Assembly (NCBI RefSeq): GCF_000018465.1
Contig: NC_010085.1
Coordinates: 1,200,001 to 1,232,000, forward strand
DNA length: 32,000 nt
From: Nitrosopumilus maritimus SCM1
Lineage (GTDB): Archaea > Thermoproteota > Nitrososphaeria > Nitrososphaerales > Nitrosopumilaceae
Direction: 5' to 3'
Every line of letters begins with the position of its first letter. Within the stretch, counting starts at the first letter, position 1. Shown piece by piece: positions 2,413-28,823 of this stretch. A program made the translations under genes and the position numbers. Under the pieces are notes generated by a model. The model did not search any database and was not told the origin of the DNA. It was given only the letters and a program-made list of their open reading frames with translations.

Positions 2413-2460
2413 AATCTCAGATTTGAAAGATATTCATTTTAGTGTATGAGATGATAGATA

Positions 2461-3153
2461 ATGGGTTTAGGAAGTAGTTATTGGAGCGAAGTAATCGAAG
2501 TACTTCGAGAAATCATTCCAGTTTATGACAAGGTAAACTCAATCATATCGCTAGGAAAAGATGTAGAACATCGTAACCGTGGAATTTCAAACAGAGTTCT
2601 TCCAGGAAACAAGATACTTGATGCAGGTTCAGGATTTGGTAATATGTCAAAGACTGCGCTAAAACTAACTGATGGAAAGATTTCAGTTACACTTTATGAT
2701 CCTCTGGTTCCAATGTTAAAGAACACTGGAACCCATTTTGAAAAGACACCAGACATGGCAAATGGTGTTTTTGAGCACATTCCATTTAGAGATGAAGAGT
2801 TTGATGCAGTGCTTTGTGGTTATTCATTAAGAGATGCAATAAATTTGAGAATTGCAATATCAGAGATTCACAGAGTCTTGAAAAAAGATGGACGATTTGT
2901 AATTGTAGATTTGGGAAAGCCAGATAGCGGATTCATCAGAGCAGGAGTTGCATTTTATCTCAGATGCATCTTGCCAATTCTTGCATTTAGTGCAGGTGGA
3001 AAACTTGGATTAAAGTTTGGGACACTTTATGGAACTTTCAAAAGATGGCCACAAAACAAAAAGCTTGAAGGTTTACTGTTAGAGAAATTCTCCAGAGTGG
3101 AATTTGAGAAAGATCTTATGGGTGGAGCAATCATGGTTGCTGCATACAAATGA
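2461..3153 (+). CDS. Class I SAM-dependent methyltransferase, UbiE/MenG-like
   Basis: Motif I ILDAGSGFGNMS. The later segments FDAVLCGYSLRD and LKKDGRFVIVD are typical of the UbiE/COQ5 family. It overlaps the next gene by 4 nt (ATGA). Confidence 0.8.
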   Translation: MGLGSSYWSEVIEVLREIIPVYDKVNSIISLGKDVEHRNRGISNRVLPGNKILDAGSGFGNMSKTALKLTDGKISVTLYDPLVPMLKNTGTHFEKTPDMANGVFEHIPFRDEEFDAVLCGYSLRDAINLRIAISEIHRVLKKDGRFVIVDLGKPDSGFIRAGVAFYLRCILPILAFSAGGKLGLKFGTLYGTFKRWPQNKKLEGLLLEKFSRVEFEKDLMGGAIMVAAYK

Positions 3154-4304
3154 ACAAAGTTCTGATTCTAGTAAACATTACAGGTCTGATTATTGGAATT
3201 TCTTATGGACTACACGGACCAATACTTCCAGTCTTTGCAAAAAATGTCATAGGTGCGACATATTCTGAACTTGGATTAATCGGATTAACAAATTTCATTC
3301 CTTACATGTTCATTCCATTGTTTGTCGGAATTCTTCTTGACAGATTCAATAATGGATACTTGCTAGCATTGGGAACTGCAATCAATTCTGCATCAATTTA
3401 CCTTCTATCAATTGCACAATCAGTACCAGAGATTATGGGATTTAGAATTATGACAGGTGTGGCTCATGCATTTTTCTGGCCTCCATGTGAATCAATCATA
3501 TCAAATGAAAGTACAGAGAAAAACAGAGTAAAGAACATCTCGTGGTTTACAATGTTCTTTGTAATTGGGTTCATGGTAGGACCACTACTAGGTACCGTAT
3601 TTTTGGAGGGTCTTGATACAACATACAGAATCCTATTCCAGATTACTGCATTCATTTTAGCAACTGCATTGATTTCATCAATTCTAGTTTCAAGAAAAAG
3701 CGTTAGAAATCATCATGAACATTTTTCATTTTCATCAATCAAAGAGATGAAGAGATTTCCTGAAGTCATAATTTTGTTGCTTTTTTGTACATCATCATTT
3801 GGAATAATTCTGACAATCTATCCAGCATTTCTAAATGACAATGGAATGACAGACACAGACATTTTGTTATTGTTTTTTGTTTTTGGAATTTCACGGGTAA
3901 TTTCACTTGCACTGGCAGGAAAGTTTGCAAGAAAAACTAGTCAGACATTGATTGCAGCAGTATTTGCAGTATCAGCTGGACTGGCAATATCAGTTGTAGC
4001 AGACTCTATCATTACTTTTGGAATTGCACTAGTTCTAATGGGATTTGGATTCAGTATATTCTTCCCGCTAACTTTGGAGATTATTCTAAGCAAGACTAAG
4101 AAAGGAATTTCAGGAAAAATCATAGGAGTATATGAAACAGTCTTTGGAATGGGTTGGGCAATAGGGCCAACACTTGGTGGACCAATATCACAATCACTAG
4201 GAGATGATACACCGTATCTGATATTTTGTGTAATAGGAATTGGGGTAGCACTACTTGCAATCATTACTAGAAAGAAACTAGAGCCACAAAGAGTCTTGGA
4301 TTAG
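3150..4304 (+). CDS. MFS-type transporter
   Basis: 384 aa, about 12 hydrophobic segments, and an LLDRFNNG loop between TM2 and TM3 that resembles the MFS signature. Start is coupled to the upstream methyltransferase. Confidence 0.8.
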   Translation: MNKVLILVNITGLIIGISYGLHGPILPVFAKNVIGATYSELGLIGLTNFIPYMFIPLFVGILLDRFNNGYLLALGTAINSASIYLLSIAQSVPEIMGFRIMTGVAHAFFWPPCESIISNESTEKNRVKNISWFTMFFVIGFMVGPLLGTVFLEGLDTTYRILFQITAFILATALISSILVSRKSVRNHHEHFSFSSIKEMKRFPEVIILLLFCTSSFGIILTIYPAFLNDNGMTDTDILLLFFVFGISRVISLALAGKFARKTSQTLIAAVFAVSAGLAISVVADSIITFGIALVLMGFGFSIFFPLTLEIILSKTKKGISGKIIGVYETVFGMGWAIGPTLGGPISQSLGDDTPYLIFCVIGIGVALLAIITRKKLEPQRVLD

Positions 4305-9415: not shown

Positions 9416-11071
9416 ATGAAATGGAAAACACTACAACACAAAGGAATCTTGTTTCCTCCTGCCTATGAGGCACAAGGAATCAAGATAAAGATCAAGGGAG
9501 AGAAAGTCGATCTCAATTTAGACCAAGAAGAGATGATTTACCAATGGGCAAAAAAGAAGGACACACCATATGCACAAGACAAGGTTTTTCAAAAAAACTT
9601 TACAGCAGACTTTGCAAAAACTCTAGATTCTAAATTTAAAAAAATTTCATATGAAGATATTGATTTTTCAGATGCCTACAAACTAGTTGACAAAGAAAAA
9701 GATCTCAAGGAGATGATGACAAAAGAAGAAAAAAAGGCAATTGCTGCAAAAAGAAAAGAACTCAGAGAAGAACTCAAATCAAAATATGGAGTTGCGGTGA
9801 TGGATGGAAAAGAAGTAGAAGTTGGGAATTACATGGCAGAGCCTCCAGGAATTTTTATTGGAAGAGGAGAACATCCATTACGTGGAAGATGGAAACCACG
9901 TGTTACTGCGAAAGATGTAACACTAAATCTTGGAAAAGAAGCTAAAGTTCCTGAAGGAAAGTGGGGTAAGATTATTCATGATAAAGATTCAATGTGGTTA
10001 GCAAGTTGGATGGATTTTCTTACACAAAAAAGAAAGTATGTTTGGCTTTCAGATAGTTCCGACCTAAAACAAGGAAGAGACAAAGAAAAGTACGAAAAAG
10101 CTGTCAAGCTTGAAAAGGAGATTGAGAAGATCAAAAAAGCAATGGTCAAAGACATGAAAGATTCTAAAAAGAACAACGTTGCCACTGCATGTTATCTGAT
10201 TTACAAAACTGCAATGAGAGTTGGAGATGAAAAAGATGAAGATGAAGCAGATACTGTTGGTGCAACTACCTTAAGAAAAGAACATATCAAAATTACTTCT
10301 GATACAATTGAGTTTGACTTTTTGGGAAAAGATAGTGTTAGATGGCAAGAGACATTAAAAGTGGTTGGAGACGATAAACAATTTCAAGAAAATCTCAAAA
10401 AATTAATTGAAAAGAAGAAACCAAGTGAGGAAATTTTCCACGATATTACATCTAGAGATGTTAACAAGTATTTGTCAGGAATTGTGAAAGGAGTAACTGC
10501 AAAAGTGTTCAGAACATATCAGGCAACGACCGTGGTTAAAAATTACCTAGTAAATCATGACAACATAAAGGGAAAATCAGATAATGAAAAATTATACCAT
10601 GCAAAATTGGCAAATCTAGAAGCTGCAATAATGTGTAATCACAAAAGGACAATTCCAAAAACATTTGAGCAGTCATTGCAAAAAAAGAAAGATACTCTCA
10701 AGAAAAGAGAGAGAGAAAAAGCATGGGAAAAGACACAGCAAACTCTCAAAAAAGTAGAATCATCAGAGCCAAAAACAGATACTCAGAAAAAGAACAAAGA
10801 AAAGAGAATCAAGACATTAAATGAGCAAATCAAAAAACAAAAACAAAAACACAAAGAAAGAATTGAAAAACTAAAATTACAAGTTGACTTGTCTGAGAAA
10901 ACTAGAGATTACAACCTTGGAACGTCACTTAGAAATTACATAGATCCACGTGTTTTCAAAGCATGGACAGATGAGGTTGGTGCAGAATGGGAGAAACTAT
11001 ACACATCAGCACTTCAAAAGAAATTCCTTTGGGTCAAAAATGAAAACACAAAGTGGAAGGAAATCAAATAA
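9416..11071 (+). CDS. DNA topoisomerase IB, eukaryote-type
   Basis: GATTLRKEHI, KVFRTYQAT, CNHKRT and LGTSLRNYIDPRV align to the catalytic Arg/Arg/His/Tyr blocks of eukaryotic Top1 (compare human SKLNYLDPR). There is a Lys-rich linker before the Tyr domain. Confidence 0.9.
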   Translation: MKWKTLQHKGILFPPAYEAQGIKIKIKGEKVDLNLDQEEMIYQWAKKKDTPYAQDKVFQKNFTADFAKTLDSKFKKISYEDIDFSDAYKLVDKEKDLKEMMTKEEKKAIAAKRKELREELKSKYGVAVMDGKEVEVGNYMAEPPGIFIGRGEHPLRGRWKPRVTAKDVTLNLGKEAKVPEGKWGKIIHDKDSMWLASWMDFLTQKRKYVWLSDSSDLKQGRDKEKYEKAVKLEKEIEKIKKAMVKDMKDSKKNNVATACYLIYKTAMRVGDEKDEDEADTVGATTLRKEHIKITSDTIEFDFLGKDSVRWQETLKVVGDDKQFQENLKKLIEKKKPSEEIFHDITSRDVNKYLSGIVKGVTAKVFRTYQATTVVKNYLVNHDNIKGKSDNEKLYHAKLANLEAAIMCNHKRTIPKTFEQSLQKKKDTLKKREREKAWEKTQQTLKKVESSEPKTDTQKKNKEKRIKTLNEQIKKQKQKHKERIEKLKLQVDLSEKTRDYNLGTSLRNYIDPRVFKAWTDEVGAEWEKLYTSALQKKFLWVKNENTKWKEIK

Positions 11072-11078
11072 TTAAAAA

Positions 11079-12680
11079 TTAATTTTTAGGAACATATGCA
11101 AATCCAGGTCCCCAACTAGAACGTTGTTTTGCTTGATAATCTTTTGAAGACTCCATATCTCCTTTTTCAGCTGAAGTAAGGTGTATTTCCACTGGAGAAT
11201 ATCCTATACATTCAAAATGAAATTCATTAGTTAATGCAAAGCCTTTGTAAAAACTCTCTTCAAGATCATGTTCTGTTTTAAGTTTATAATCAGTTACATG
11301 ACATTTTGAATAATCATATCCACGAGCATGAATATTTCCATACATCATACTAACATTAACATCAAACAACTCATCAAGTGAAGAAACGCCAGTTGTTTTT
11401 GCACCAGTTTTTCTGGAATCATCAACTACTTCATATAACAACGGAGTGACTCCAGGTACCCCTACAAGTTCAAATGTTGGATTTGCTTTTGAAATCAAAT
11501 TACCTTGATAAAATTCAGGGAATTCTACAACTTCAGTTCCGCTATCAAAGCTAAATGTGGCTACTGCTCTAGGACCAGCACCCATGTTATAATTTACAGT
11601 TACAGGTTGAGGTTCATTGTCAGGATTCACAGGACTTAATCCAGAACATTCAACATCCAGTATTTCGGCAGTTGCAAATCCACGCTTACCAGTATAACCC
11701 TCTTCTTTATCTTGCAAAGTGAGTATATCATAACCACTCACAATACAATCTTCATAGTTAAGAGTACGTATTGTTTGAGTATCTGTTTTTGTTAATCCAG
11801 TTAACTTTTCAGGAATTACAAGGTCTACAGTTACATCAAAATCTTCATTATAACTTGTTGCAAGACCACCTACTTTTTGAGATTTTATGATTGCGTTATC
11901 AATCAATGGGTGAGGTAGAACTGCAGTAATGATTTGAAAACTAGGAGTTCCAATATCTTCCTCGCTATATCCTCCAGTTGATGTAAAAATTACTGATTCT
12001 ATTTTTTCAGCACCATTATCAAAGTCAAATGTTAGAAGAGTACGCATATCATTAGCTTGTTTAAATGGCAATAAACCATAATCTGTAAAAATTTTATCGC
12101 TAGGACGTGCACTTGCAAAAATTTCTTCTTGATTAATTGAAACACCACCACAGTTAAACTCTATTGAATTAACAATAGCAAATCCAGAATTTGGTACATG
12201 GTAGGATTCATAATCATCAGTTTGAGTTGTTACTGATTGTGAAGAAATTTCACAGTTTCTATATGAGAATGATTTCAACTCAGTAGTATCTTGCATTACT
12301 TGTACATCTACATCGAAAAATCGATGATCATAATCAAATGCACTACCAGCAGTTAATTTTGATTGTCTATGTTTGAATGCTTCATCTAATGCCATATGAA
12401 GATGAGGATTATGACCAACCACACCCTCTATTGAAAAACTTGTTCCAGCATCAGACACTATATCAGAGGTTGTTGAAAAAACGGGAAAGTTTACTGTTTC
12501 TACACCATCTCTAAAATGAAAAGTAATTACATTATGAATTCCTGCAACATAATCATAATCATGACTAATTGCTTCATCATCAGCAAATACAGTATTTGAG
12601 AAACCCTGTGTAGATAGTATGATCGTTGAAATTATCAAAATAGATGTTAGAATAGTGAATTTTGGGTAGGATTTGCTCAT
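11079..12680 (-). CDS. Secreted protein built from three tandem ~160-aa repeats (unknown family)
   Basis: The track ORF extends to 12779. The ATG at 12680 (MSKSYPKFTILTSILIISTIILSTQGFSNTVFA) gives a clean signal peptide. The module TF.F..G.E...F..F ... FDV.V ... Y..C.[IV]..Y ... GFA ... [FV]EC.G.SP is repeated three times. Confidence 0.7.
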   Translation of the reverse strand: MSKSYPKFTILTSILIISTIILSTQGFSNTVFADDEAISHDYDYVAGIHNVITFHFRDGVETVNFPVFSTTSDIVSDAGTSFSIEGVVGHNPHLHMALDEAFKHRQSKLTAGSAFDYDHRFFDVDVQVMQDTTELKSFSYRNCEISSQSVTTQTDDYESYHVPNSGFAIVNSIEFNCGGVSINQEEIFASARPSDKIFTDYGLLPFKQANDMRTLLTFDFDNGAEKIESVIFTSTGGYSEEDIGTPSFQIITAVLPHPLIDNAIIKSQKVGGLATSYNEDFDVTVDLVIPEKLTGLTKTDTQTIRTLNYEDCIVSGYDILTLQDKEEGYTGKRGFATAEILDVECSGLSPVNPDNEPQPVTVNYNMGAGPRAVATFSFDSGTEVVEFPEFYQGNLISKANPTFELVGVPGVTPLLYEVVDDSRKTGAKTTGVSSLDELFDVNVSMMYGNIHARGYDYSKCHVTDYKLKTEHDLEESFYKGFALTNEFHFECIGYSPVEIHLTSAEKGDMESSKDYQAKQRSSWGPGFAYVPKN

Positions 12681-12831
12681 TGTGGTACAAACATCAAAAA
12701 AAGAAGTTAAAGAGTAAGTATTCACTGCCGTGCAGTGCATTTTTGGCAAAAAAGTATGGTCAAAAAACAGAAAAATCAATCAAAATTTTGAAAGAATCAT
12801 TTAATTTCCCATATTTTCAGGCTTATACTAT

Positions 12832-12945
12832 GCCGGGGTAGCTCAGCCTGGTTAGAGTGCCAGTTACTTGGTAAACTCTAGCGGTTCTCCAACTAAGGCA
12901 ATACTCATAATCTGGAGGTCGCGAGTTCGAAACTCGCCCCCGGCA
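12832..12945 (+). tRNA. tRNA-Met (anticodon CAT; elongator Met or Ile2-type) with a 39-nt intron at a non-canonical position (30/31)
   Basis: Acceptor GCCGGGG (12832-12838) pairs with CCCCGGC (12938-12944), followed by discriminator A. T arm is GCGAG-TTCGAAA-CTCGC (12921-12937). The anticodon loop CTCATAA has CAT at 12906-12908. The anticodon stem CCAG+A/TCTGG forms only after removing 12864-12902. The mature length is 75 nt. Confidence 0.85.
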
Positions 12946-12990
12946 CACACAAATTAGTTTAAAACCCACCCCCAACCTATTGTAAAGTCA

Positions 12991-14319
12991 TTGAATACAA
13001 AGTATGGTTCAAGGCAAAAAATTGACATTCACAACTACCCATCACGCATGAAACAGGTCAATAATCAGATCGAGCAAGAATTGTCATTTGAGAACATTTC
13101 ACTAATCAAAAAATATGACAGGGAGATGGTATCACAATCAATTGCCATTGCAACACGTCAAAAGCATCTAAGAACATTGCTAACACTATCAAAATTGCTA
13201 AAGAAAAACTGGAAGGATGTGACCAGGGATGATATTGATGACTTGGTATTTCTGATAATGGACCAGTTTGCAGATGAAAGTGGTCAGGAAACACATTACT
13301 CTTATGATCACAAAAAGATTCTCAAGATTTTCTTTAGATGGTACAAGCTTGGCTCTAGAGAATTTGTTCAAGTTGGAGATCCACCTGAGACAAAAAATGT
13401 CAAGATGAAAAAAGTCAAAGACAAGATTGCACGTGAAGACCTCCTAAATGAAGAAGACAGAATAAAGATACTGTATGCATGTGGCGAGAATGCAAGAGAC
13501 AGAGCTCTAATTGATTGTCATATGGAAGCTGGAACCAGACCAGGTGAGATTCTAAATTTGAAGTTAAAACATGTAAAGTTTGACAAGCATGGTTGTGTAC
13601 TTCAAGTGGACGGAAAGACAGGAGCTAGAACAATTAGAATCGTAAGGGCTACTCCAAACTTGGCTGCATGGATTGCAGTACATCCATACAAAGATGAACC
13701 TGAAATGCCATTATGGCCAAATATTAGCCATCATAAGAAAGGCAGTCCAATTACATATGCTGCAGCAAGACAGATCTTACATAGAAGATGCAAGATTGCA
13801 AATATCTCAAAACGTGTTTATCTGAATTTATTTAGACATAGTGAGGCCACAACTACAGCAAACTTCATGACTGAAGCTCAGATGAGAAAAAGACATGGAT
13901 GGTCGTCTGACTCTAAAATGCCTGCAAGATATGTCCACTTGGTAAATTCTGATGTGGAAGATGCAATCTTCAAGCACTATGGAATCAAAAAAGAAGATGA
14001 AAAGATGCCAGAAATGCCTGTAAAGTGTCATTTTTGTGAAATGTACAATCCATCAGACAGCGTAACATGTACAAAATGTGGAAAACCATTGAATCTTGAG
14101 AGTGCAATAAAAAGAGAAGAGCAAGAAAATGCTGAAAAGAAAAAACTTGAAGAAAAGATCAAGATGCTAGAGCAAAGACAGATTGAATCAGAAAAGAATC
14201 AGAAAGGATATTCAGATTTAAAATCAATTGTAGATGAATATTTGAAAGAATACTTTGAGGACGTATTTGACAAGATAGAGTTTGTAAAGAATCAAAAACA
14301 AAATAGTATTACAAACTGA
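12991..14319 (+). CDS. Tyrosine recombinase / integrase with a C-terminal zinc ribbon and coiled-coil tail
   Basis: Box I is AGTRPGEIL (Arg), followed by GKTGARTIRI (Lys), LFRHSEATT (Arg-His) and HGWSSDSKMPARYVH (catalytic Tyr). There is an N-terminal SAM-like core-binding region. The C-terminal extension has CHFCEMYNPSDSVTCTKCG and then a Glu/Lys-rich helix. Start is either TTG 12991 or the first ATG at 13048. Confidence 0.85.
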   Translation: MNTKYGSRQKIDIHNYPSRMKQVNNQIEQELSFENISLIKKYDREMVSQSIAIATRQKHLRTLLTLSKLLKKNWKDVTRDDIDDLVFLIMDQFADESGQETHYSYDHKKILKIFFRWYKLGSREFVQVGDPPETKNVKMKKVKDKIAREDLLNEEDRIKILYACGENARDRALIDCHMEAGTRPGEILNLKLKHVKFDKHGCVLQVDGKTGARTIRIVRATPNLAAWIAVHPYKDEPEMPLWPNISHHKKGSPITYAAARQILHRRCKIANISKRVYLNLFRHSEATTTANFMTEAQMRKRHGWSSDSKMPARYVHLVNSDVEDAIFKHYGIKKEDEKMPEMPVKCHFCEMYNPSDSVTCTKCGKPLNLESAIKREEQENAEKKKLEEKIKMLEQRQIESEKNQKGYSDLKSIVDEYLKEYFEDVFDKIEFVKNQKQNSITN

Positions 14320-14577
14320 AATTATTTATAAAAAATTAATTTATAAATTATTTTGAAATTATTTATAAAAAATTACACTTGAGAAAATTGTTTATGCAAA
14401 AATGATACGCAGGAAAATTGTTCATAAAAAATAATTTATGAATTAAAATAATTTATAAAAAATTAAGCACAACAAAATAGAGCAGATAAAAAAGCCATGA
14501 CTATAACTTGGGCACAAAAAATAATTTATAAATTTCTAAAATTAATTTATAAATTAATTTTATTTATAAAAAATTCT
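14317..14577. repeat. Array of AT-only TATA-box-like motifs (consensus AAWTATTTATAAAAAATT and the palindrome TAATTTATAAATTA)
   Basis: Perfect 22-mer TGAAATTATTTATAAAAAATTA at 14317-14338 (overlapping the integrase stop codon) and at 14354-14375. Variants occur at 14446-14465, 14517-14535 and 14560-14575. The 18-mer AAATTAATTTATAAATTA occurs at 14333-14350 and 14539-14556. GAAAATTGTT[TC]AT occurs at about 14383 and 14412. Confidence 0.8.
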
Positions 14578-14610
14578 TAGTCTATATTTTTTCAAAGATA
14601 GAATTTTGAT

Positions 14611-14851
14611 AGGCACAAATTCATTATATCTTTTTTATCCTTACCAAAAGATACTCAAGAGATACAGCATCTTTTGTAAGATCTTACCATACCTTACCAA
14701 GATCTTGGTATAGATACTATCTTTTAGTTGATTTAGCCTCGATTCTGTAGATAGCAAGATCTTACCATCTCTTACTAAGATCTTACCATCTCTTACCCAT
14801 ACCTTACTAAGATCTTAGTATCGATGCTAGTAAGGTTGAAAATTTGTGCCT
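14611..14851. repeat. Inverted-repeat-bounded core with clustered AGATCT-centred palindromes and a tandem 21-bp repeat
   Basis: The IR is AGGCACAAATT (14611-14621) / AATTTGTGCCT (14841-14851). Palindromes are GTAAGATCTTAC (14676-14687), TACCAAGATCTTGGTA (14695-14710) and TACTAAGATCTTAGTA (14805-14820). Tandem unit AAGATCTTACCATCTCTTAC[T/C] lies at 14756-14776 and 14777-14797. A 29-mer at 14687-14715 is repeated at 14797-14825 (26/29 identical). Confidence 0.85.
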
Positions 14852-14903
14852 AAGTAAGGTAGCATCAACACTCCAAGATACCTAAGAAATTTTTTGTAAA
14901 TAA

Positions 14904-14923
14904 AAATAATTTATAAAAAATTT
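14904..14923 (+). promoter_or_regulatory. Isolated eighth copy of the TATA-like motif (AAATAATTTATAAAAAATTT); possible promoter for the downstream non-coding region
   Basis: It belongs to the same motif family as 14317-14577. TTTATAAA at 14910-14917 would place an archaeal TSS near 14940. This is a positional argument only. Confidence 0.35.
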
Positions 14924-14939
14924 CTACATGAGTATTGAA

Positions 14940-15225
14940 TCAAAATCATAAAACCCTATGAGAGTGTAGAGGGTTGAACCAATCAGATAATTCCCTTTAA
15001 GAGAATAAGAGTATCAAACCAATACTTCGATACCGCAATGGGGTTTGAATCCGACCGGACTAGTAGAGCAAGTTGTCTCTAAAAAAGTTCCATTTAGGCA
15101 TAAAAATCAAACGAGATATTGGTTTGCACGCCAAATACTGTTTACCGAGTATTGGCTTACGTGTAGTTGGTGCAATCCAACGGAATGAAAACCTTCATTT
15201 TATGCACGTCAGTATTTTTTACATA
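14940..15225 (+). ncRNA. Candidate structured non-coding RNA of unknown class (strand uncertain)
   Basis: No ORF longer than 17 codons on either strand. The two 60-nt lines I counted (15001-15060 and 15121-15180) are 45% G+C, against near 10% in the adjacent repeat array. Hairpins: AACCCT/AGGGTT (14952-14975), GTTGG/CCAAC (15166-15181) and AATGAA/TTCATT (15184-15199). A long-range helix pairs CCAATACT(T)CG at 15019-15029 with CGAGTATTGG at 15146-15155. The region ends in T6 (15215-15220) and T5 (15227-15231) runs. Confidence 0.3.
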
Positions 15226-15264
15226 GTTTTTGTGACTCTATCATTCTAAATAATTGGAATCATA

Positions 15265-15280
15265 ATACAAGATTGAATTT
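15265..15280. repeat. 16-bp direct repeat ATACAAGATTGAATTT, copy 1 (79 nt beyond the stop of the 15359-16840 gene)
   Basis: Identical 16-mer read at 15265-15280 and 16880-16895. Confidence 0.6.
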
Positions 15281-15358
15281 GAAGCAAGATTAAATACAAA
15301 TTTTGCAAACAAGGTCATGAAAAACATTATCGAATCAATTGTTGACTTTTTTACTTCA

Positions 15359-16840
15359 TTACTTGGGTAATGGTGTTATCATGACCAATCCAGAATTATC
15401 AGGAACAAACCTGATCATGGAAACATCGTCTCCCAAAACATTTCCCTTGGCACTAATACTGTTGGGGATTTGTCCATCAACTGTTACTGCCATTTTTGAA
15501 GTCAGAAACTCATTTGGGACATACATTACAACGTACTGAGGCCTGTCAATTACAAATGAAATTAATCCTGCCTCAGGTACAAATTGAAAGTCAGATATTA
15601 TTGCAGGACTTTGTATGTCAATTACCTTAGACGTCTCATCTACAAACTGAGGCTGAAATTTTTCTCTTTTATCTAAAGTCAGAGGCTCTTCTTCATATTT
15701 TTCTGAATCCTGAATTTCCAATTTCAGTCCTTCTAGGCAATAGTTCTGTCCTTGCTTGTTTTCAATCAGATTACATGATTTTGCGCCTTCATCAAAATTA
15801 TGATTTGTAAAGAATGCCAAAGTAGTTCCAATAGACATGCTGCATTCAGCAAAATCAATACCACTTAGTTGTGATTCTTTACAAAGATCAGACAAGACAT
15901 CTCCTGACATTCCCTGTCTGGTCAAAACATTGTCTGTATACTGCATCATGACTCCTTTCATGCAGAGTCTATTCTGATAAAACGACAAATCATGGCACAT
16001 TTGTAGTGACGAGTCCAAGTTTTCATCAAAATAATGAACCAAACCATGTCCCAGACCATGAATACAGTCCTGATAGTTTGATGTTCCTATCAAGGCATTA
16101 CAGACAGAATCATAGTCAGAGGGAAATGACTCTCCATCTTCTTGAACATCGTGAAAATATGCAGCCAATACGCCATGAAAATATCCTCCTCTGCACATGG
16201 TCCCATCCATTCCAATTAGATTTTCAATGACATCGGGATTCTCATTGAACGCCACATGTCCTACTTCATGGGATACAAAATGGCAATCGTCAATTAGTCC
16301 AATTTTTGATAATGCTATAGACAATTCCAAGGCATCAGAGTTGTTTTCTTGATTCTGAGCAACTTTGCCAAAAAATTGAGAGTAACACAACAAACGAGAT
16401 GAGCCCTCATCTATTTTTGTACAGTCCTGTATATCTTCAAGATACTTTATGGCTAGCTCTTCAGAGATTGGAATAGGAACAGCATCCCTAGAGTCTAGGA
16501 TTCCGTCATTGTCATCGTCAGGATCTATATTACTTCCTATCCCATCAAAGTCAAAATCCGACCACTCTTCAGGATTATCATCAAACACATCAAGAATATC
16601 TAAAATGCCGTCATTGTCATCGTCAGGATCACAGAGATTCCCAACAGCGTCATTATCAAAGTCTGTCTGATTCTCATTTTTGATTGTAGGACAATTATCA
16701 GAAGTATCGCTAATTCTATCTTTGTCAGCATCTGCCCTTACCAGATTTATTTCAGGAAACTCTTCAAAATTTATTGCAACAACAGTAACAGACAAGCCAA
16801 CTGCAATCATAATATGAATTATGAAAAACCTGCTAATCAA
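15359..16840 (-). CDS. Membrane-anchored or secreted protein with thrombospondin type-3-like Ca-binding repeats, a Cys/His-rich repeat region and a C-terminal beta domain
   Basis: N-terminal TM MISRFFIIHIMIAVGLSVTVVAINF (TTG start). D-rich repeats DxDxDGxxD occur twice as DPDDDNDGILD, encoded by an identical 23-nt DNA repeat at 16503-16525 and 16608-16630. About six C..G.(G)H(G)....F modules follow. Confidence 0.8.
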   Translation of the reverse strand: MISRFFIIHIMIAVGLSVTVVAINFEEFPEINLVRADADKDRISDTSDNCPTIKNENQTDFDNDAVGNLCDPDDDNDGILDILDVFDDNPEEWSDFDFDGIGSNIDPDDDNDGILDSRDAVPIPISEELAIKYLEDIQDCTKIDEGSSRLLCYSQFFGKVAQNQENNSDALELSIALSKIGLIDDCHFVSHEVGHVAFNENPDVIENLIGMDGTMCRGGYFHGVLAAYFHDVQEDGESFPSDYDSVCNALIGTSNYQDCIHGLGHGLVHYFDENLDSSLQMCHDLSFYQNRLCMKGVMMQYTDNVLTRQGMSGDVLSDLCKESQLSGIDFAECSMSIGTTLAFFTNHNFDEGAKSCNLIENKQGQNYCLEGLKLEIQDSEKYEEEPLTLDKREKFQPQFVDETSKVIDIQSPAIISDFQFVPEAGLISFVIDRPQYVVMYVPNEFLTSKMAVTVDGQIPNSISAKGNVLGDDVSMIRFVPDNSGLVMITPLPK

Positions 16841-17101: not shown

Positions 17102-17617
17102 ATGGACGAAGTGCTGGCATCTCCAAAAGAGAAGATTTTGGACTTTATAATAAACAATCCAGGGTCTCATTTGAGAATGATAAAAAAGAATGTTCAGTTC
17201 TCTATGGGTACAGTTCAATACCATCTAAACACACTTGAAAAAGAAGGCAAGATAAAATCAAGTAAAACAAGATTTTACAAAAATTACTACCACATAAACG
17301 AGTCTGATGAAAAACTGTTATCTGTTTTCAACTTGGAATCCCCACGAAGCATAATCATGTATTTGCTTCAACATCAGCCATCTACGCATCAGGAGATAGC
17401 AAAAGGAATAGAGTTATCATCATCAACTGTGAGCTGGCACATGAAAAGATTGTTAGAATCAAATATTGTAGAATCAGAATACTCAGGAAAATATACCCTA
17501 TATCGTCTAGTTGACAGAGAAAAAGTGTTAGAGAATCTCAAAAAATGCAGTTCAACAACATGGAACTCTATGATCAACAGCATGGTAGATATATTTTCAG
17601 CATTTGAGCAGAAATAG
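17102..17617 (+). CDS. Transcriptional regulator with two tandem winged-helix (ArsR-like) domains
   Basis: Two copies of the pattern: ILDFIINNPGSHLRMIKKNVQFSMGTVQYHLNTLEKEGKIK and IIMYLLQHQPSTHQEIAKGIELSSSTVSWHMKRLLESNIVE. Confidence 0.75.
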   Translation: MDEVLASPKEKILDFIINNPGSHLRMIKKNVQFSMGTVQYHLNTLEKEGKIKSSKTRFYKNYYHINESDEKLLSVFNLESPRSIIMYLLQHQPSTHQEIAKGIELSSSTVSWHMKRLLESNIVESEYSGKYTLYRLVDREKVLENLKKCSSTTWNSMINSMVDIFSAFEQK

Positions 17618-21244: not shown

Positions 21245-22054
21245 GTGAGAAAATACAAGCCTACAATTTCTTACAGACTAAAGGAAATACCAATTAAACA
21301 GATCAAAGTGTGGAAGGAAGCACAAGCTCGCAAGCTAGACAGAGAAAACATTTCAGAACTTGCAAAATCAATTAAAAATGAAGGGTTGCTAAATCCTCCC
21401 CTAGTTCAAAAAGAAGGCAAAAACACTTTTTTGTTAATGTCAGGGCAGCGAAGGCTTGCCGCAATGAAGAGACTTGGCGCAAAAAAAATCCCAGTACATG
21501 TGCTCACAAAGCAGACATCATATAATCTAGAGAACGCAAAGGCAGCATCAGTTGTTGAAAACATACACAGAAACGACATGAATCACAAAGAAATTGCAGA
21601 TTCTTGCAAATTTTTGACAGAGCAGATGGGAAAATCAGCTGCTGCAAGATCTATGGGCATGTCATTGCCAACCCTGAACAAGTATCTTGGATTTTCAGGC
21701 GTTCCAAACAGACTAAAGCTACTGGTACCAAAAGTTCTTTCGCGCGACGAGATGACAAAAGTATATCGAATCATACCAAACATTACAAAAGCAGAAAAAA
21801 TAGCACAAAGAATCTCAAAGCTAGACTCGGGGTTGAAAAAGAAATACATCCAAGCGTTATCCCAATCACCAAAATCATCGCATCAAAAATTGCTAAAGCG
21901 TGCAAAATCAATGCGTATAAAACGGAATTTGTCATTTAAGATCTCAAAAACAAATGCAAAAAGACTTGCAACAGTATCAAACAAAAAGGACATGTCACCT
22001 GATGAATTTGCAGGAAAAATCATTTCAGACTATCTAAAACGTAAAAGAAGATAA
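21245..22054 (+). CDS. ParB/Srx-domain plus HTH protein (ParB-like), with no ParA partner in the window
   Basis: IPIKQIKVW...LAKSIKNEGLLNPPLV...LMSGQRRLAAMKRLG is the ParB N-terminal domain with a GxRR box. MGKSAAARSMGMSLPTLNKYLGF is the HTH. The C-terminal tail is basic. GTG start. Confidence 0.75.
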   Translation: MRKYKPTISYRLKEIPIKQIKVWKEAQARKLDRENISELAKSIKNEGLLNPPLVQKEGKNTFLLMSGQRRLAAMKRLGAKKIPVHVLTKQTSYNLENAKAASVVENIHRNDMNHKEIADSCKFLTEQMGKSAAARSMGMSLPTLNKYLGFSGVPNRLKLLVPKVLSRDEMTKVYRIIPNITKAEKIAQRISKLDSGLKKKYIQALSQSPKSSHQKLLKRAKSMRIKRNLSFKISKTNAKRLATVSNKKDMSPDEFAGKIISDYLKRKRR

Positions 22055-22074: not shown

Positions 22075-22167
22075 TTAGTCTTCACAATATTTTGCAGGCC
22101 TTCCAAATTTATCACTACAAAGCTCACATGGGTCATCCAGATGACACTCTGGCAAATAACAGCTCAT
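22075..22167 (-). CDS. 30-aa Cys-rich small ORF (MSCYLPECHLDDPCELCSDKFGRPAKYCED), below the ORF-track length cutoff
   Basis: Its ATG (22167-22165) overlaps the TGA stop (22166-22164) of the upstream USP gene in an ATGA arrangement. It has five Cys, including a CxxC. Confidence 0.35.
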   Translation of the reverse strand: MSCYLPECHLDDPCELCSDKFGRPAKYCED

Positions 22168-22601
22168 TGTATCCTCAACAAAGAACAATTAAGATTCCTT
22201 GAAATTTTGTCAACAACACTCTGGTGAATCTCAGTAGTATTGATGTTCTCAGACGGATTCATAACCACCAGGTCAACGTCACTTTTGTTTGCATAATCTA
22301 TAATGTATTGATGGGGATCATCCTCTATTTTTTCTATTTTTGTTGCAACATTAGCACCATACTTTTTTGCAATTTCTCTAAATTTAGAAGCCTCGTTTTC
22401 AGCGATATTTACATCTCTTGCGGCATCTATCTTGTCTTGTTTTGTTTTAAAGAACATGAATTTTGGAATCTTTTTTTCCACACATTGCAAAATTGTGATT
22501 TTTCCTCCAAGATTTCCCGCAATTTTTGACGCAGTAGTAATGGACTTGAGGCCTTTTTCAGAATTGTCAAAGGGTACCAAAATATGCTTGAATTCAGTCA
22601 T
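22164..22601 (-). CDS. Universal stress protein (UspA family)
   Basis: ILVPFDNSEKGLKSITTASKIA...ITILQCVE...DLVVM is the USP fold pattern. The G-x2-G-x9-G(S/T) ATP motif is not recognisable. Confidence 0.85.
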   Translation of the reverse strand: MTEFKHILVPFDNSEKGLKSITTASKIAGNLGGKITILQCVEKKIPKFMFFKTKQDKIDAARDVNIAENEASKFREIAKKYGANVATKIEKIEDDPHQYIIDYANKSDVDLVVMNPSENINTTEIHQSVVDKISRNLNCSLLRIQ

Positions 22602-23211: not shown

Positions 23212-23658
23212 ATGTTCATGGTAATAAAAATCAAAAAAATTCTAGTTCCATACGATGCAACACCTAGTAGCGAAAAGGCTGTCAAAAAAGTGCTGCCTCT
23301 AATTGAGAAGCATGACTCAAAGATTCTATTTTTATCGTGTGTACATGACAAGGCGACATTTGGATTCTTTAAGACAAAGTCTGATAAACGCGAGATTGCC
23401 AAGGAAAAGAAAAAAGCTGAGAGACATCATGAAAGGCTGAAAAAAGAAGCAGCAAAATTTGGCATTCCTTCAAGCTCAAAGATAATCAAGAGTGATTTGG
23501 AATCAAAATCAATCATTGAATATGCAAAAGATCAAAACGCGGATTTAATTGTGATGAGTAAATCAAAAATCGGAACACATGCTGAAAAAATGTACTACAA
23601 CAGTACAGTTGATGCCGTTTTCAAAAAAACGCCATGTCCCTTTCTATACATCCCATAA
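23212..23658 (+). CDS. Universal stress protein (UspA family)
   Basis: ILVPYDATPSSEKAVKKVLPLIEKHDSKILFLSCV...DLIVMSKSKIGTHAEK...TPCPFLYI. The true start may be the Met at 23218. Confidence 0.85.
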   Translation: MFMVIKIKKILVPYDATPSSEKAVKKVLPLIEKHDSKILFLSCVHDKATFGFFKTKSDKREIAKEKKKAERHHERLKKEAAKFGIPSSSKIIKSDLESKSIIEYAKDQNADLIVMSKSKIGTHAEKMYYNSTVDAVFKKTPCPFLYIP

Positions 23659-23762: not shown

Positions 23763-24590
23763 TTAATTCTTGTTGTGAATTTCTACGACTCTTTGAGGAA
23801 ATGGAATTTCTATACCGTTCTCATCAAGAGTAGTTTTTACTACCTCACACAATTCCGGATAGACTTTGCCCCAGTGATCCCTGTGATGCCAGACCATAAC
23901 TTGTAAATTCACACTGCTGTCTGCAAGCTCTGTAACATGTATTTCCGGCTCGGGTTTTGCCAAAATATAGGGCATTTTTTCATTCAAAGTTTGTTTCAAT
24001 TTGGAAATTGCCTTCTTGGTATTTGCAGAATAGCTGATTCCTACTGAGACAGATGTACGTCTTGCATTTGTTGAAGAAAATCCTCGAATTCTTGACGTGA
24101 ATACTTTGTCATTTGGAATTCGCATTGTTGTTCCATCAAACTTTCTGACCATTGTGGAGAACATTGTAATGTCCAATACAGTTCCAAGCACATCCATGTC
24201 TGGAATTTCTATTGTATCGCCATGCTTGAGTGGCTTTTCTATCATTAAGAATATGCCTGAAATTAAGTTGGATACGACTGATTGTGTGGCAAATCCAATG
24301 ACCACTCCAAAAATACCTCCTGCCACCAATAGACCGCTAAGATCTATTCCTGTGCTTGTCATTACACCTGCAAAGGAGAGCAAAATTATACCATAGTACA
24401 GCAATTTCCCAATATTTTTTGATGTATGCTCGGGCAATTTTGATGCAAATTTCTTTGTAAAAACGGATTTTGAGATTGACGCGATTGTAAATCCTGCCAA
24501 CAAAAAAACCAATGACGTAGCTACTAGACCCAGTCCAATCGTGTTTCCCAATATGTCAAATGAGTATTGGTCAAGAAATTCCAGCACCAT
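23763..24590 (-). CDS. mscS: Small-conductance mechanosensitive channel, full-length MscS type
   Basis: Three TM segments. The TM3/beta-domain signature is ATQSVVSNLISGIFLMIEKPLKHGDTIEI...TMRIPNDKVF. A C-terminal alpha/beta domain is present (275 aa). Confidence 0.9.
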   Translation of the reverse strand: MVLEFLDQYSFDILGNTIGLGLVATSLVFLLAGFTIASISKSVFTKKFASKLPEHTSKNIGKLLYYGIILLSFAGVMTSTGIDLSGLLVAGGIFGVVIGFATQSVVSNLISGIFLMIEKPLKHGDTIEIPDMDVLGTVLDITMFSTMVRKFDGTTMRIPNDKVFTSRIRGFSSTNARRTSVSVGISYSANTKKAISKLKQTLNEKMPYILAKPEPEIHVTELADSSVNLQVMVWHHRDHWGKVYPELCEVVKTTLDENGIEIPFPQRVVEIHNKN

Positions 24591-25395: not shown

Positions 25396-25866
25396 TTAGC
25401 TTACGTGACGCTTTTTTGGGAAAATTTCCACCATCTCTTCGCTTAGCTTGTGATTTGGGATTATGATTTTACTGCCGTCATTTGTCACAGCAACTACCTT
25501 TGTCAGATGCAAACCGGTAATTTGGCACCGAACATAATCAAACTCTATTTTATCCCCTACGTTAATTTGAGGATTAAGGAATATTCCTATTCCTGAAATG
25601 ATGTTTTTTAATTGATTTTGTAATGCAATTCCTATCACTACTGCGGCTGCCCCAATTGACGTGATTACCTCAAGGGCTAGATCAAAAAGTCCAAAAGTAG
25701 TTCCAAGATATATTGCCTCCCCCAGAGTAATGAAGATTAGCAGCATTCCCAGCAATTTGTCTGAGCCTTGCAGATCTTGTAGTTTGTTATTGATGACTTG
25801 TCTTGTAATGAAATATAGCACTGCAGTTATGGCTAGTGATATTACTGCTAAGTAAATGTCAGACAA
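25396..25866 (-). CDS. Truncated mini-MscS-like channel protein (3 TM plus the beta domain only)
   Basis: NIISGIGIFLNPQINVGDKIEFDYVRCQITGLHLTKVVAVTNDGSKIIIPNHKLSEEMVEIF aligns with the E. coli MscS TM3-beta region and ends where the alpha/beta domain would begin. The TTG start is supported by alignment to the paralogue at 30309-30806. Confidence 0.75.
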   Translation of the reverse strand: MSDIYLAVISLAITAVLYFITRQVINNKLQDLQGSDKLLGMLLIFITLGEAIYLGTTFGLFDLALEVITSIGAAAVVIGIALQNQLKNIISGIGIFLNPQINVGDKIEFDYVRCQITGLHLTKVVAVTNDGSKIIIPNHKLSEEMVEIFPKKRHVS

Positions 25867-26367: not shown

Positions 26368-27165
26368 TTATTCTTTTAATTTAAACTCCTTGAATGCATC
26401 TGATATGTTCCAATAGTGTTTGAAATAATCCAGACACCACTCTCTAAATGCCTCATCCTGACTGTAGAACATGGAACGCAGGTCTGGTTTTCCACTCAAA
26501 TCAGGAAACATCAATCCTGCAGAATGCTCGTTTAGAATTACAGACACCTGAACTGTTTTTAGCATCCTTCTTTCGATCTTTCCGGATTCCAGCAATGGAT
26601 AAAAGCCGGATTTCTCCAAGAGTTTCTTGCGCCCTGCAGGAATTGACGCATTCTCAGAGATGATATGACGGTACTTTACGCCACGCTTTACACGTCTTAT
26701 CATCAATTCAATCAGATCCAAGGGAGTTTCTGACAATATGTTGAAGATATACTCATCAGACGTCCTGTAGATTTTCTTCCATGTTTCAAGCACCTTGGAT
26801 ACGCCTACAATTTCCTTTGAATTGCTAAGATCACCTATGCGTCGCAGGAATTTTGGAGGAATGTTTCCAAAGTCATGAGTTTGCAGATATTTCTTGTTTT
26901 GAGACAAATATGAAAATGAGTGTATCTGAGTGCTAATTGATCTTCCAAAAGTTGTAAGTGTGTAGAAATTGTTCTCTTGTTTTCTTATCAGTCCAGAGTT
27001 GACCATGCGTTCAAAATTTCTGTGTATTTCCTGGGGCGATACATTGTATTTTTTTGCCAACGTAGTAAGTCTTGATGGTTTTTGAATCAAATCAAATAAA
27101 ATTTTTAATCTAATTTCGCTGGCAAGTTCTAAAAATTCTGCAGATGTGTATTCAAAGTCTACCAT
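26368..27165 (-). CDS. Archaeal wHTH transcriptional regulator (N-terminal ArsR-like HTH plus a C-terminal sensor-like domain, FilR1/DUF1724-like architecture)
   Basis: EIRLKILFDLIQKPSRLTTLAKKYNVSPQEIHRNFERMVNSGLIRK is the wHTH, followed by a C-terminal domain of about 170 aa. The family name comes from my recollection of the architecture and is not verified. Confidence 0.7.
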   Translation of the reverse strand: MVDFEYTSAEFLELASEIRLKILFDLIQKPSRLTTLAKKYNVSPQEIHRNFERMVNSGLIRKQENNFYTLTTFGRSISTQIHSFSYLSQNKKYLQTHDFGNIPPKFLRRIGDLSNSKEIVGVSKVLETWKKIYRTSDEYIFNILSETPLDLIELMIRRVKRGVKYRHIISENASIPAGRKKLLEKSGFYPLLESGKIERRMLKTVQVSVILNEHSAGLMFPDLSGKPDLRSMFYSQDEAFREWCLDYFKHYWNISDAFKEFKLKE

Positions 27166-27902: not shown

Positions 27903-28823
27903 TTAGATCATTTGTTTGAGACCTTTGCATCTGTTTCTGACAGTAACCTCTGTGATTCCCGCTGCATCTGCAATTTCTTTTTGAGTCCTAAATTCCTCCA
28001 AATCTATTGACGCCAGGTATAATGCAGAGGCAGCCAGTCCCATAGGATGCTTCCCTGCAGACATGTTTTGTTTTTCTGCCTTTTTTAGAATTTTTATGGC
28101 ATATCTTTTTGTTTTCTCAGACAGTTCTGCATTGCTTGCAATTTTTGCAATACAGGAGACAGAGTCAATTACGGGCATTTTAAGGTCTAACTCTTTGAAT
28201 ATGAGCCGGTATGTTGCAGAGATTTCTTTGCGTTTAATTCCTATGGATGCTGCAACTTCTCGGAGTGTCCTGGGAGCTTCTGATTCACGGCATGCGGCAT
28301 AAAGACAAGCTGCAACAAGAGATGCAATAGAACGCCCCTTGACCAGTTTTTTCTCCAGTGCCTTTCTATAGATGTACGATGCTTTTTCAGCAATTGCGTC
28401 AGACAAGGACAATTTTTCTTTCATTTTTGACAATTCCAGCAGTGCTTGTTGCAAATTTCTGTCATCATTGGTCTTTATGCGACTTCGATTATCCCATTTC
28501 CGGAGTCGTGTCATGGATGATTTCATTGACGCAGACAAGGGACTTCCAGCAGAATCTTTGTCAAAGGGGTTAATCACAGTGCTAAGTCCCCTGTCATGTC
28601 TTGTCAAAGATGTCTTGTCGCCAGTATGGGATTTATCGGTAGTTGAATTTGCAAATGCTCTTTCGGGTCTGCGGTCATTAGTTTTCTCTTCAACCACAAT
28701 ACCGCAATTTGAACAAAATATTTCTGACGATTCAACATCAGTGACTAGCGCGTTTTTTCCACATCTAGGACATTTGATTTCTTGTGAACTCATGATATGA
28801 TCAAAAAACCTTCCCGACGACAT
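27903..28823 (-). CDS. tfb: Transcription initiation factor B (TFB), canonical
   Basis: Zn ribbon CPRCG...CSNCG, a B-reader/linker, and two cyclin-fold repeats (ASYIYRKALEKKLVKGRSI.. and KRYAIKILKKAEKQNMSAGKHPMGLAASALYLAS). The start may instead be the Met at 28793. Confidence 0.9.
   Translation of the reverse strand: MSSGRFFDHIMSSQEIKCPRCGKNALVTDVESSEIFCSNCGIVVEEKTNDRRPERAFANSTTDKSHTGDKTSLTRHDRGLSTVINPFDKDSAGSPLSASMKSSMTRLRKWDNRSRIKTNDDRNLQQALLELSKMKEKLSLSDAIAEKASYIYRKALEKKLVKGRSIASLVAACLYAACRESEAPRTLREVAASIGIKRKEISATYRLIFKELDLKMPVIDSVSCIAKIASNAELSEKTKRYAIKILKKAEKQNMSAGKHPMGLAASALYLASIDLEEFRTQKEIADAAGITEVTVRNRCKGLKQMI

Follow-up and report, generated by a model that had tools for sequence, protein, structure and literature searches.

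Results

A repeat array follows a tRNA-targeting integrase

The DNA analyzed here, referred to as the window, is a stretch of 32,000 nucleotides of Nitrosopumilus maritimus SCM1 (RefSeq assembly GCF_000018465.1, contig NC_010085.1, forward-strand positions 1,200,001 to 1,232,000), and its subject is a non-coding 241-bp core (14611-14851) located behind the gene of a tyrosine integrase and read here as a candidate cis-acting repeat array of a mobile element. The integration target is an intron-containing tRNA gene (12832-12945, plus strand; Rfam tRNA, 48.3 bits) that was missed by ARAGORN; it measures 114 nt owing to its intron and, read by eye, has the anticodon loop CTCATAA and the putative anticodon CAT. 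The integrase gene lies at 12991-14319 (plus strand; PF00589, E = 4.7e-11, plus a zinc ribbon). Counted from the first in-frame ATG at 13048, its product has 423 amino acids (aa) and comprises the catalytic domain, a C-terminal zinc ribbon and a predicted terminal helix of 73 residues. The 3' end of the gene (14319) is followed by a 1-kb gene-free stretch holding the array. Contigs assembled from five public runs (ERR14380316, SRR000222, SRR000223, SRR6025872 and SRR27204715) match the window at 99.99-100%.

A search of species-representative genomes for the integrase, together with homologue look-ups, showed an orthologous core in three lineages, namely the window, L010/L011 (integrase 96% identical; P0001) and L001 (integrase 89% identical), a Nitrosopumilus metagenome-assembled chromosome with 89.5% identity to the window over 9.7 kb. 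The array follows the integrase in all three, while the DNA beyond ~14987 (L010) or 14922 (L001) is unrelated, and it is missing at the integrase-free tRNA site of L019; an earlier note on this DNA was thus right to assign the array to the integrase-linked element. Loci L019-L028, which have a 95% identical topoisomerase and no integrase, are collinear with the window up to 12949 and carry unrelated genes beyond. Given that homology to the empty site of L019 (ending in …CCCCCGGCACAC) stops at 12949, just past the tRNA 3' end, the left attachment site (attL) is at or just past this end, and given that L019-L028 are collinear only to the same point, all window DNA to the right of the tRNA gene appears to be island.

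The core is built of direct repeats phased with the DNA helix

A pattern search of the core recovered the two arms of an 11-bp inverted repeat, 14611-14621 (AGGCACAAATT) and 14841-14851, as exact complements. Read by eye, T14610 and A14852 extend the repeat to 12 bp. By itself the 11-bp inverted repeat is not significant, as a spaced one of 11 bp or longer turned up in 13% of shuffles of the surrounding 783 bp. The hexamer AGATCT starts at 14679, 14700, 14757, 14778 and 14810, that is five times within 137 bp against 17 times across the rest of the 32 kb (22 in the whole window; 12.4 +/- 3.1 in shuffles). It is the centre of the 12-bp palindrome P1 (GTAAGATCTTAC, 14676-14687) and of two perfect palindromes with 8/8 pairs, P2 (TACCAAGATCTTGGTA, 14695-14710) and P3 (TACTAAGATCTTAGTA, 14805-14820). 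A degenerate form of the palindrome allowing up to 3 mismatches matched four times, always in the core, where 0.66 matches were expected. The 21-bp tandem unit and the 29/33-mer that recurs at a distance of 110 bp with three differences were verified as well (repeat families D3 and D4), so that the geometry described in the earlier note, coordinates included, was found throughout as stated.

The basic element, however, is a direct repeat 10-11 bp long that is phased with the DNA helix and in which CTTA is invariant (consensus A-N3-TCTTAC-Y). CTTA starts at 14761, 14771, 14782, 14792, 14803 and 14814 in the right block, and a second block has starts at 14683 and 14693; the successive spacings along the chain are 10, 11, 10, 11 and 11 bp in the window and 10, 11, 10, 11, 10 and 10 bp in L001. 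Chains of CTTA at 10/11-bp spacing had a mean length of 1.9 and a maximum of 4 in 300 shuffles, compared with 6 in the core, and the strongest base autocorrelation was at lag 21, corresponding to two helical turns (0.43 vs 0.275 +/- 0.037 in shuffles, z ~4). This arrangement yields AGATCT as a by-product wherever an AAGA-type unit abuts TCTTA, and likewise a 16-bp palindrome when the neighbouring unit is the mirror word.

From left to right, the core begins with AAAGATA/TATCTTT words in alternating orientation (ATCTTTT…AAAAGAT…ATCTTTT; 14622-14675), read from the sequence and kept in L010 and L001, which include a conserved T6 run (14631-14636). Next comes a left block of three to four 10-11-bp units on the plus strand (AAGATCTTACC, ATACCTTACC, AAGATCTTGGT and ATAGAT…; 14676-14715), holding P1 and P2. 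A central spacer of ~35 bp (14716-14751, minus strand) carries, at 14733-14745, the motif TTAGCCTCGATTC (GAATCGAGGCTAA when read on the minus strand) and separates the left block from a right block of about seven 10-11-bp units with the invariant CTTA (14752-14829, plus strand), which contains the 21-bp tandem pair and P3.

The block is non-coding, and no ATG-started open reading frame (ORF) of at least 20 aa lies within the core. The earlier statement that no ORF exceeds about 12 codons was too strong, since TTG-started ORFs (table 11) of 35 aa (14606-14713, plus strand) and 38 aa (14641-14757, minus strand) cross it. Type I toxin-like peptides were considered for these small ORFs and rejected in view of their TTG starts and lack of conservation, the plus-strand ORF not being kept in L001 (alignment by eye). 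A cluster of GATC sites linked to methylation was likewise rejected, as GATC is not depleted in the window (92 vs ~104 expected) and three AGATCT hexamers have become AGAACT in L001.

Two inward-facing units bracket the core

The 11-bp inverted repeat is the inner tip of a larger unit of ~68 bp, two inward-facing copies of which bracket the core. In order, the unit comprises an AT box (ATTTAYAAAAAATT), the word (T)CTTAG, some 30 nt of leader in which GAT is invariant, and TAGGCACAAATT. The left unit (14556-14626, plus strand) has the left arm, 14611-14621, as its last 11 bases; the right unit is an inverted copy facing the core (14836-14906, minus strand) with the right arm, 14841-14851, as its inner tip, and the same arrangement is found in L010 and L001. 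L001 has in addition a third, outward-facing copy. Alignment A6, in which the left flank of the core (plus strand) was set against the right flank (minus strand) in the three lineages, comprises seven unit copies and is nearly gap-free, with a mean column identity of 76%.

Upstream of the core lies an AT-rich cluster (14320-14575, plus strand; 18% GC) in which the box ATTTATAAAAAATT occurs at 14324, 14361, 14451 and 14562, accompanied by partial copies in both orientations. A fifth box (14909-14922, plus strand) faces away from the core and is followed by a conserved segment (TCTACATGAGTATTGAATCAAAATCATAAAACCCTATGAGAG…) reaching to 14987. All 5 exact copies are on the plus strand, and all 10 copies with at most one mismatch fall in 14320-14922 (0.38 expected), with none elsewhere in the 32-kb window; this confinement led us to reject the box as a generic host promoter. 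About 145 bp of the cluster (14375-14518) are present in the window and missing from L010 and L001. With its pair of tandem 30-bp repeats (14368-14427) and one more AT box, behind which stands …TTGGGCACAAAAAAT, this segment looks like an additional unit lacking a core.

The inner tips share a motif with the integration site. Within the 32 kb, the pattern G[GC]CAC-N0-4-AAAT has only four occurrences: one at the tRNA 3' end and attL (12942), one at 14511 and one in each inverted-repeat arm. The possibility that the TAGGCA units are decayed tRNA 3' ends left by old attachment (att) junctions was rejected, as the related locus L018 targets a tRNA ending in …GGGAC and keeps a CAGGCG unit. There is also a resemblance between the unit motif TTTT-N-AGGC and what usually flanks the tRNA on the 5' side, TTTTCAGGC(A/T)TATAC; L018, with its other tRNA target, keeps both this unit motif and the central array motif.

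To the right of the core, the segment 14909-14987 is ~97% identical in L010. It includes a 35-nt element (GAGTATTGAAYCAAAATYATRAAWCCCTATGAGAG, 14930-14964) that is 88.6% identical to positions 2292-2326 of L017, even though the integrases are only ~58-61% identical; the L017 copy is located ~120 bp upstream of a Cas1 gene (2447-3490), possibly as part of a casposon. A 22-nt motif (GTTTGAATCCGACCGGACTAGT, 15043-15064) is found in reverse orientation at 1901-1922 of L010 (19/22 identical), where both its flanks are collinear. Further right, a conserved hairpin block (GCCAAATACT-GTTTACCG-AGTATTGGC; 15120-15156, plus strand) is 100% identical to L010 1956-1992, and a related copy is positioned ~100 bp after the integrase in L029 (~12385-12420). 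The DNA to the right of the block and the flanking genes differ between the window, L010 and L029, and the block may be the right end of an integrase-only module of ~2.2 kb.

The array evolves more slowly than fourfold-degenerate sites and keeps its phase

In a three-way alignment, the core block, the upstream AT box and the leader are kept across the three lineages. At fourfold-degenerate sites of the integrase the divergence is 0.417 between the window and L001 and 0.114 between the window and L010. The array diverged from that of L001 by 0.156 (P ~1e-22 against the fourfold rate), and its left core (14622-14675) by 0.12; outside a central patch, it diverged from that of L010 by 0.048 (P = 3e-5). 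The patch itself, ~55 alignment columns (165-220; window 14703-14757), differs between the window and L010 by 0.31, about three times the fourfold rate, suggesting a local replacement or conversion event; the 13-nt motif within it is invariant. Judged from these rates, the array as a whole appears to be under purifying selection.

What is preserved is the phased direct repeat and not the palindrome. In L001 the right block has turned over: it consists of three tandem AAGAACTTAGTATCTCTTACT units with 7 phased CTTA and has lost three AGATCT to AGAACT. Aligning the half-sites of the orthologues at palindrome site 2 gave 8/8 pairs in the window, 5/8 in L010 and 7/8 in L001, which does not bear out the earlier suggestion that dyad symmetry itself is selected. 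The mirror pair of changes, C>T and G>A, on which that suggestion rested is real, but an equally good explanation is that repeat variants (…ACCA/…GGTA/…AGTA) were exchanged. Despite indels and the extra 21-bp copy in L001, the arm-to-arm length is 241, 241 and 243 bp.

These data also bear on the possibility, considered in part in the earlier note, that the block is a non-autonomous element resembling a miniature inverted-repeat transposable element (MITE) or a cassette, or else a functionless minisatellite expanding neutrally. The flanking units are imperfect terminal inverted repeats of ~68 bp; with the insert removed, GGCAC-AAATT-TGTGCC forms a perfect 16-bp palindrome that resembles GGCACACAATTTTTGTG of the empty site (read by eye), and repeat copy number differs between relatives. 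A check by eye for a target-site duplication found AAATT just inside both arms, as part of the inverted repeat itself. Yet each locus has just one copy, and it always stands at the corresponding position behind the integrase. The array also diverges far less than fourfold sites and keeps its length, and units are found singly (the third copy of L001, L017, L018) as well as in pairs. Scans of the window, the related loci, and the metagenome and viral contigs revealed no further copy of the array: ATCTTTTGTAAGATCTTAC matched once in viral contigs (L008) and once in metagenome contigs (L009), a scan for the pattern bounded by the inverted repeat matched once (L038), all three being chance matches in coding DNA, and a scan of the collection for the central-motif pattern gave none. 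Taken with the rates above, this makes such an element or minisatellite rather unlikely.

Related integrases carry analogous arrays made of other words

More distant integrases are followed by arrays of the same plan. In L016/L017, whose integrase is 58-61% identical and occupies the same tRNA site, two successive modules come after the gene, made up in each case of AT box, leader, GGTAGGCA and a ~150-190-bp core, and the words are AAGCTT, AAGCTAAGCTT and CAAGATCTTG. L018, with an integrase 56-58% identical and a different tRNA target, uses the repeat word AAAGATGGTATC. The integrases of L002, L012 and L013 are 81-83% identical and have a different C-terminal tail, homology to the window being lost at ~14090-14160; their arrays are made of CTTATAAGAC and CAGCTA/CTGCTA. 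AAGAT/ATCTT words number 16-23 per array with the first tail type vs 1-2 with the second, on a background of 3.3 per 600 bp. The repeat words are thus lineage-specific, and they occur in both orientations and in the leader as well as the core.

The centre of the array recurs too. The pattern CGAGSCYAWT has 8 occurrences among 30 loci, all inside post-integrase arrays and in either orientation; the central copy of the window (CGAGGCTAAA) ends in A and falls outside the exact pattern. As a double-stranded DNA site tolerates flips, the occurrence of this motif in either orientation fits such a site. In L013 the central motif (ATATTTTCGAGGCTAATAC, ~1706-1727) is almost the same as the stretch that stands just upstream of the L019 target tRNA (ATATTTCGAGGCTTATAC-TAT-tRNA, ~10390-10410).

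The opposite orientation of the central motif in different lineages, for example L012 vs L013, could instead be the trace of a fimS-type invertible switch, in which the tyrosine recombinase flips the segment between the inverted GGCACAAATT arms. The inverted repeat does bracket ~219 bp beside a tyrosine recombinase gene, and the arm motif matches the att junction motif. The orientation is nevertheless the same in the window, L010, L011 and L001, and four independent same-strain assemblies cross the core in one orientation at ~100% identity. Moreover, each arm is a single half-site rather than two half-sites around a spacer (read by eye), L016/L017 have no inverted repeat, and the difference between L012 and L013 is ancient (75% identity over 65 bp). 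A switch therefore seems very improbable to us.

Throughout the integrase family (P0001-P0120), the zinc ribbon is followed by a hypervariable, K/E-rich tail (window 13990-14319, residues ~324-423), and tail types differ sharply even among close relatives. Since DNA homology between loci breaks within the integrase 3' end (~14090-14160), the tail travels with the downstream array and not with the catalytic domain. Tail type correlates with repeat word, though over few loci and for two features that are physically linked. The idea that the tail is an array-specific DNA reader was weakened by the AlphaFold model, in which residues 350-422 are predicted to form one helix (pLDDT ~80), 73 residues long, after the zinc ribbon; the prediction of one long helix in place of a DNA-binding fold also takes support from the integrase as the binder, one of the candidates proposed earlier.

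Possible transcription of the core as a non-coding RNA

The main rival to a protein-binding array, in our view possible but doubtful, is a transcribed non-coding RNA locus. The units would then be convergent archaeal promoters with a conserved 5' leader ending in UAGGCACAAAUU, and the product would most plausibly be a G+A-rich minus-strand RNA of ~295 nt, free of a U5 run until 14575-14570, or a sense/antisense pair. In agreement with this, the AT boxes contain TTTATAAA and the invariant GAT lies ~27 nt downstream in 7/7 unit copies with conserved spacing. The minus-strand order of unit, repeats and CGAGGCUAA is the order seen from the plus units in L017 and L018 (read by eye). The folds of both strands are much better than those of shuffles (z = -4.7 and -5.4), and the variants of the left arm (A>G in L010 and in L001) keep G·U pairs on the plus strand.

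The folding, however, says nothing between the strands, because the palindromes guarantee it. The variants that give G·U on the plus strand are A·C mismatches on the minus strand, in conflict with the latter being the terminator-free one, and on the plus strand the conserved T6 run would stop a transcript after ~40 nt; in L018 a T8 run comes right after the unit. The covariation term was unfavourable on both strands (+3.68; n = 3 sequences), and the few pairs changed on both sides (3 of 71 on the plus strand and 1 of 73 on the minus strand in these three sequences) sit in poorly aligned repeats. An Rfam scan across the window at gathering thresholds gave no hit to the array, and there was none at E <= 5 in 14250-15450. 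Finally, helical phasing would be meaningless for an RNA.

No replication, partition or regulatory gene travels with the array

The earlier note had proposed an operator, a centromere-like or an origin-like site. For the core and the AT-rich cluster to be the replication origin or partition site of an excised element, with 21-bp iterons beside an unwinding region or a parC-like centromere, the repeats are suitably placed: there are 2 tandem 21-bp copies in the window and 3 in L001, they adjoin the 18%-GC region with its five direct 14-mers, and two phased-repeat clusters surround a central spacer, a geometry like that of plasmid R1 parC. The genes argue otherwise. None of the genes Rep, Orc/Cdc6, MCM, primase, ParA or ParM/ParR accompanies the array across the loci: when the window and the cargo of L001 were scanned with Pfam and the called L010 genes inspected, no Rep, MCM, primase or Orc gene came up, and no ParA was present among the window ORFs scanned (~11-30 kb). 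The cargo of L001 consists of a peptidase-like protein, an MscS channel and unknowns, and that of L010 of a wHTH (winged helix-turn-helix) gene and a nitroreductase only. The sole ParB_N protein (21245-22054) is encoded 6.4 kb from the array, and the stretches downstream of the array in L001 (~10 kb) and L010 (~1.9 kb) contain no homologue of it. With a conserved module that looks integrase-only (~2.2 kb), we consider an origin or partition site highly unlikely.

The same comparison lends no support to the wHTH regulators named earlier. For the wHTH protein encoded at 17102-17617, the downstream stretch of L001 has no homologue, and the wHTH gene of L010 matches it just weakly, over 66 residues; the latter gene, which of the two loci only L010 has, is a 51%-identical paralogue of window 26368-27165. 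We also found no gene for an excisionase or for a recombination directionality factor or similar protein. In the phage database, 14320-15358 had no DNA match and the integrase had only distant matches, at most 37% identical, to archaeal virus integrases; the integrase query found nothing in the viral contigs.

Neighbouring genes and variation of the island

On the left side of the tRNA gene, a topoisomerase IB gene (9416-11071) is followed by a 566-aa ORF (11079-12779, minus strand) without a Pfam hit. At this position L019-L028 have a 515-aa gene, and the ORF is missing in L001, L012 and L016; this side of the tRNA gene too holds a variable spot. To the right of the gene-free stretch, the cargo comprises adhesin-like, wHTH, ParB-like, Usp, MscS and TFB genes. 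Three sets of paralogues are paired, TFIIB/TFB (27903-28823 and 29190-30119), Usp (22164-22601 and 23212-23658) and MscS-type channels (23763-24590 and 25396-25866); all lie right of the tRNA gene and their sequences are missing in L019. No repeat of the tRNA 3' region of at least 12 nt that could mark a right attachment site was found in the window, where short matches were at chance level; the right end of the island seems to be outside the window. As it is not located, some of the paired paralogues may be chromosomal.

The tRNA/integrase site is a hotspot for variable islands, with defence-like cargo in other genomes. In L013 (1984-7461) the same site carries two ThsB-TIR proteins, SLATT, Fic and QueC/QueF/TGT cargo, and in L029/L030 (10642-12297) the integrase is fused to a weak SIR2-like C-terminus.

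Discussion

We tentatively favour the view that the core is a cis-acting, double-stranded DNA array to which a protein binds, and that it belongs to the non-coding DNA of a small integrase module, tRNA-targeting and carried by a Nitrosopumilus island. One protein, or the integrase together with a host architectural protein, would bind cooperatively along one face of the helix, and the bound array would form a wrapped or looped nucleoprotein complex. This complex would control the integrase module, either at recombination, as an accessory or arm-like region, or at the flanking promoter-like AT boxes. Binding itself and the identity of the binder are what we infer; what speaks for a DNA site is the helical phasing, the linkage to the integrase, the constraint, the length kept despite turnover, the restricted GGCAC…AAAT motif, the lineage-specific analogous arrays and the absence of RNA support. 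A protein-binding array stays the best reading of the block, as the earlier note had it; the binders proposed there and a role as origin or centromere are not supported.

Several points weigh against this view. The array is set back by ~1.7 kb from attL and by 270-540 bp from the candidate right end (15156), distances larger than those of classical arm-type sites. No gene besides the integrase is conserved with the array, be it a regulator, Rep or Par gene, and the predicted single long helix of the integrase tail suggests oligomerisation rather than DNA recognition. The co-variation of tail and array may be just physical linkage. L029/L030 have a related integrase and a terminal hairpin without an array, and hence the array is not essential to every module. 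The 10-11-bp period could stem from minisatellite-type duplication of coincidental length, and the flanking units are archaeal promoter-like (TATA-like box, invariant GAT ~27 nt downstream), so that the core could simply be transcribed. With three orthologous core sequences, the selection and covariation tests are weakly powered.

A bolder view, which we rate as unlikely, is that the AT-box units, TAGGCAC, the lineage-specific phased words and the CGAGGCTAA centre make up a dedicated, rapidly co-evolving module carried by this family of tRNA-targeting integrases in Nitrosopumilaceae. It would be the cis-acting scaffold of a minimal, integrase-only element and the first arm-like architecture described for an archaeal tyrosine recombinase, or else a non-coding RNA cassette borne by the integrase and expressed by convergent transcription. 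Thaumarchaeota that oxidise ammonia abound in the oceans, and what is known of their mobile elements is almost entirely which genes they carry; of the cis-acting DNA of archaeal integrases, essentially nothing outside the short att core has been characterised. The present locus offers a compact, tractable case, with one integrase gene, ~840 bp of highly organised non-coding DNA and relatives that use different words. If the array is the assembly site of the integrase or of a host protein, it would show how such islands are controlled and could explain the variable cargo, defence genes included, at the same tRNA site. If it is only transcribed, or a neutral repeat, it would be a well-described curiosity.

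Literature searches for origin motifs of N. maritimus, for maps of transcription start sites and for any account of this island gave nothing usable. The survey of thaumarchaeal integrated elements by Krupovic et al. (2019; PMC6563490) reports sizes down to 2.6 kb and att sites down to 8 bp. Like the cryptic integrated elements described there, the module is carried by an integrase, sits at a tRNA gene with very short att identity and adjoins a variable island; it differs in that it appears to be integrase-only, at ~2.2 kb. Term searches of that survey (PMC6563490) gave no description of non-coding repeat arrays downstream of an integrase, and 'arm-type' or 'arm type' does not occur in a review of archaeal tyrosine recombinases (PMC8371274).

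Among better-known systems, iteron origins (pSC101, R6K, RK2, P1) share with the array the tandem repeats of ~21-22 bp beside an AT-rich region with repeated 13-14-mers, but the three array loci lack a Rep gene, there are only 2-3 perfect tandem copies and the module seems to hold only an integrase. With fimS switches the array has in common a short inverted repeat bracketing a 200-300-bp segment beside a tyrosine recombinase gene; it departs from them in its one orientation (three lineages, four same-strain assemblies), in having no evident outward internal promoter and in its single half-site arms. The array resembles the arm and accessory DNA of tyrosine recombinases (lambda attP arms and Xis, P2 Cox/186 Apl boxes, cer/psi) in its adjacent recombinase gene, its helically phased direct repeats (the P2 Cox/186 Apl boxes being one helical turn apart), the att-junction motif (GGCAC…AAAT) that brackets it and its co-variation with the integrase lineage. 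In contrast to such DNA, it keeps a distance from both attL and the candidate right end, no excisionase or directionality-factor gene accompanies it, and no arm-binding domain is evident in an integrase whose tail is predicted to be a long helix. The parC sites of R1 and pSK41, type II centromeres bound by ParR, have 10-11-bp repeats in two clusters with a central spacer. The array matches them in its two phased direct-repeat clusters, its spacer of ~35-40 bp and its 20-21-bp unit of two half-repeats, and by analogy would be expected to act through cooperative binding along one DNA face. It differs from parC in having inverted AT-box units, an archaeal host and linkage to an integrase, and no adjacent or conserved ParM/ParR or partition operon. 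Because the cognate genes are absent, the array is not a member of the parC, Cox/Apl/Xis or iteron families; on analogy, its geometry appears closest to ParR-bound parC and to helically phased sites of the Cox/Apl/Xis type, and it may work as these systems and iterons do without belonging to any of them.

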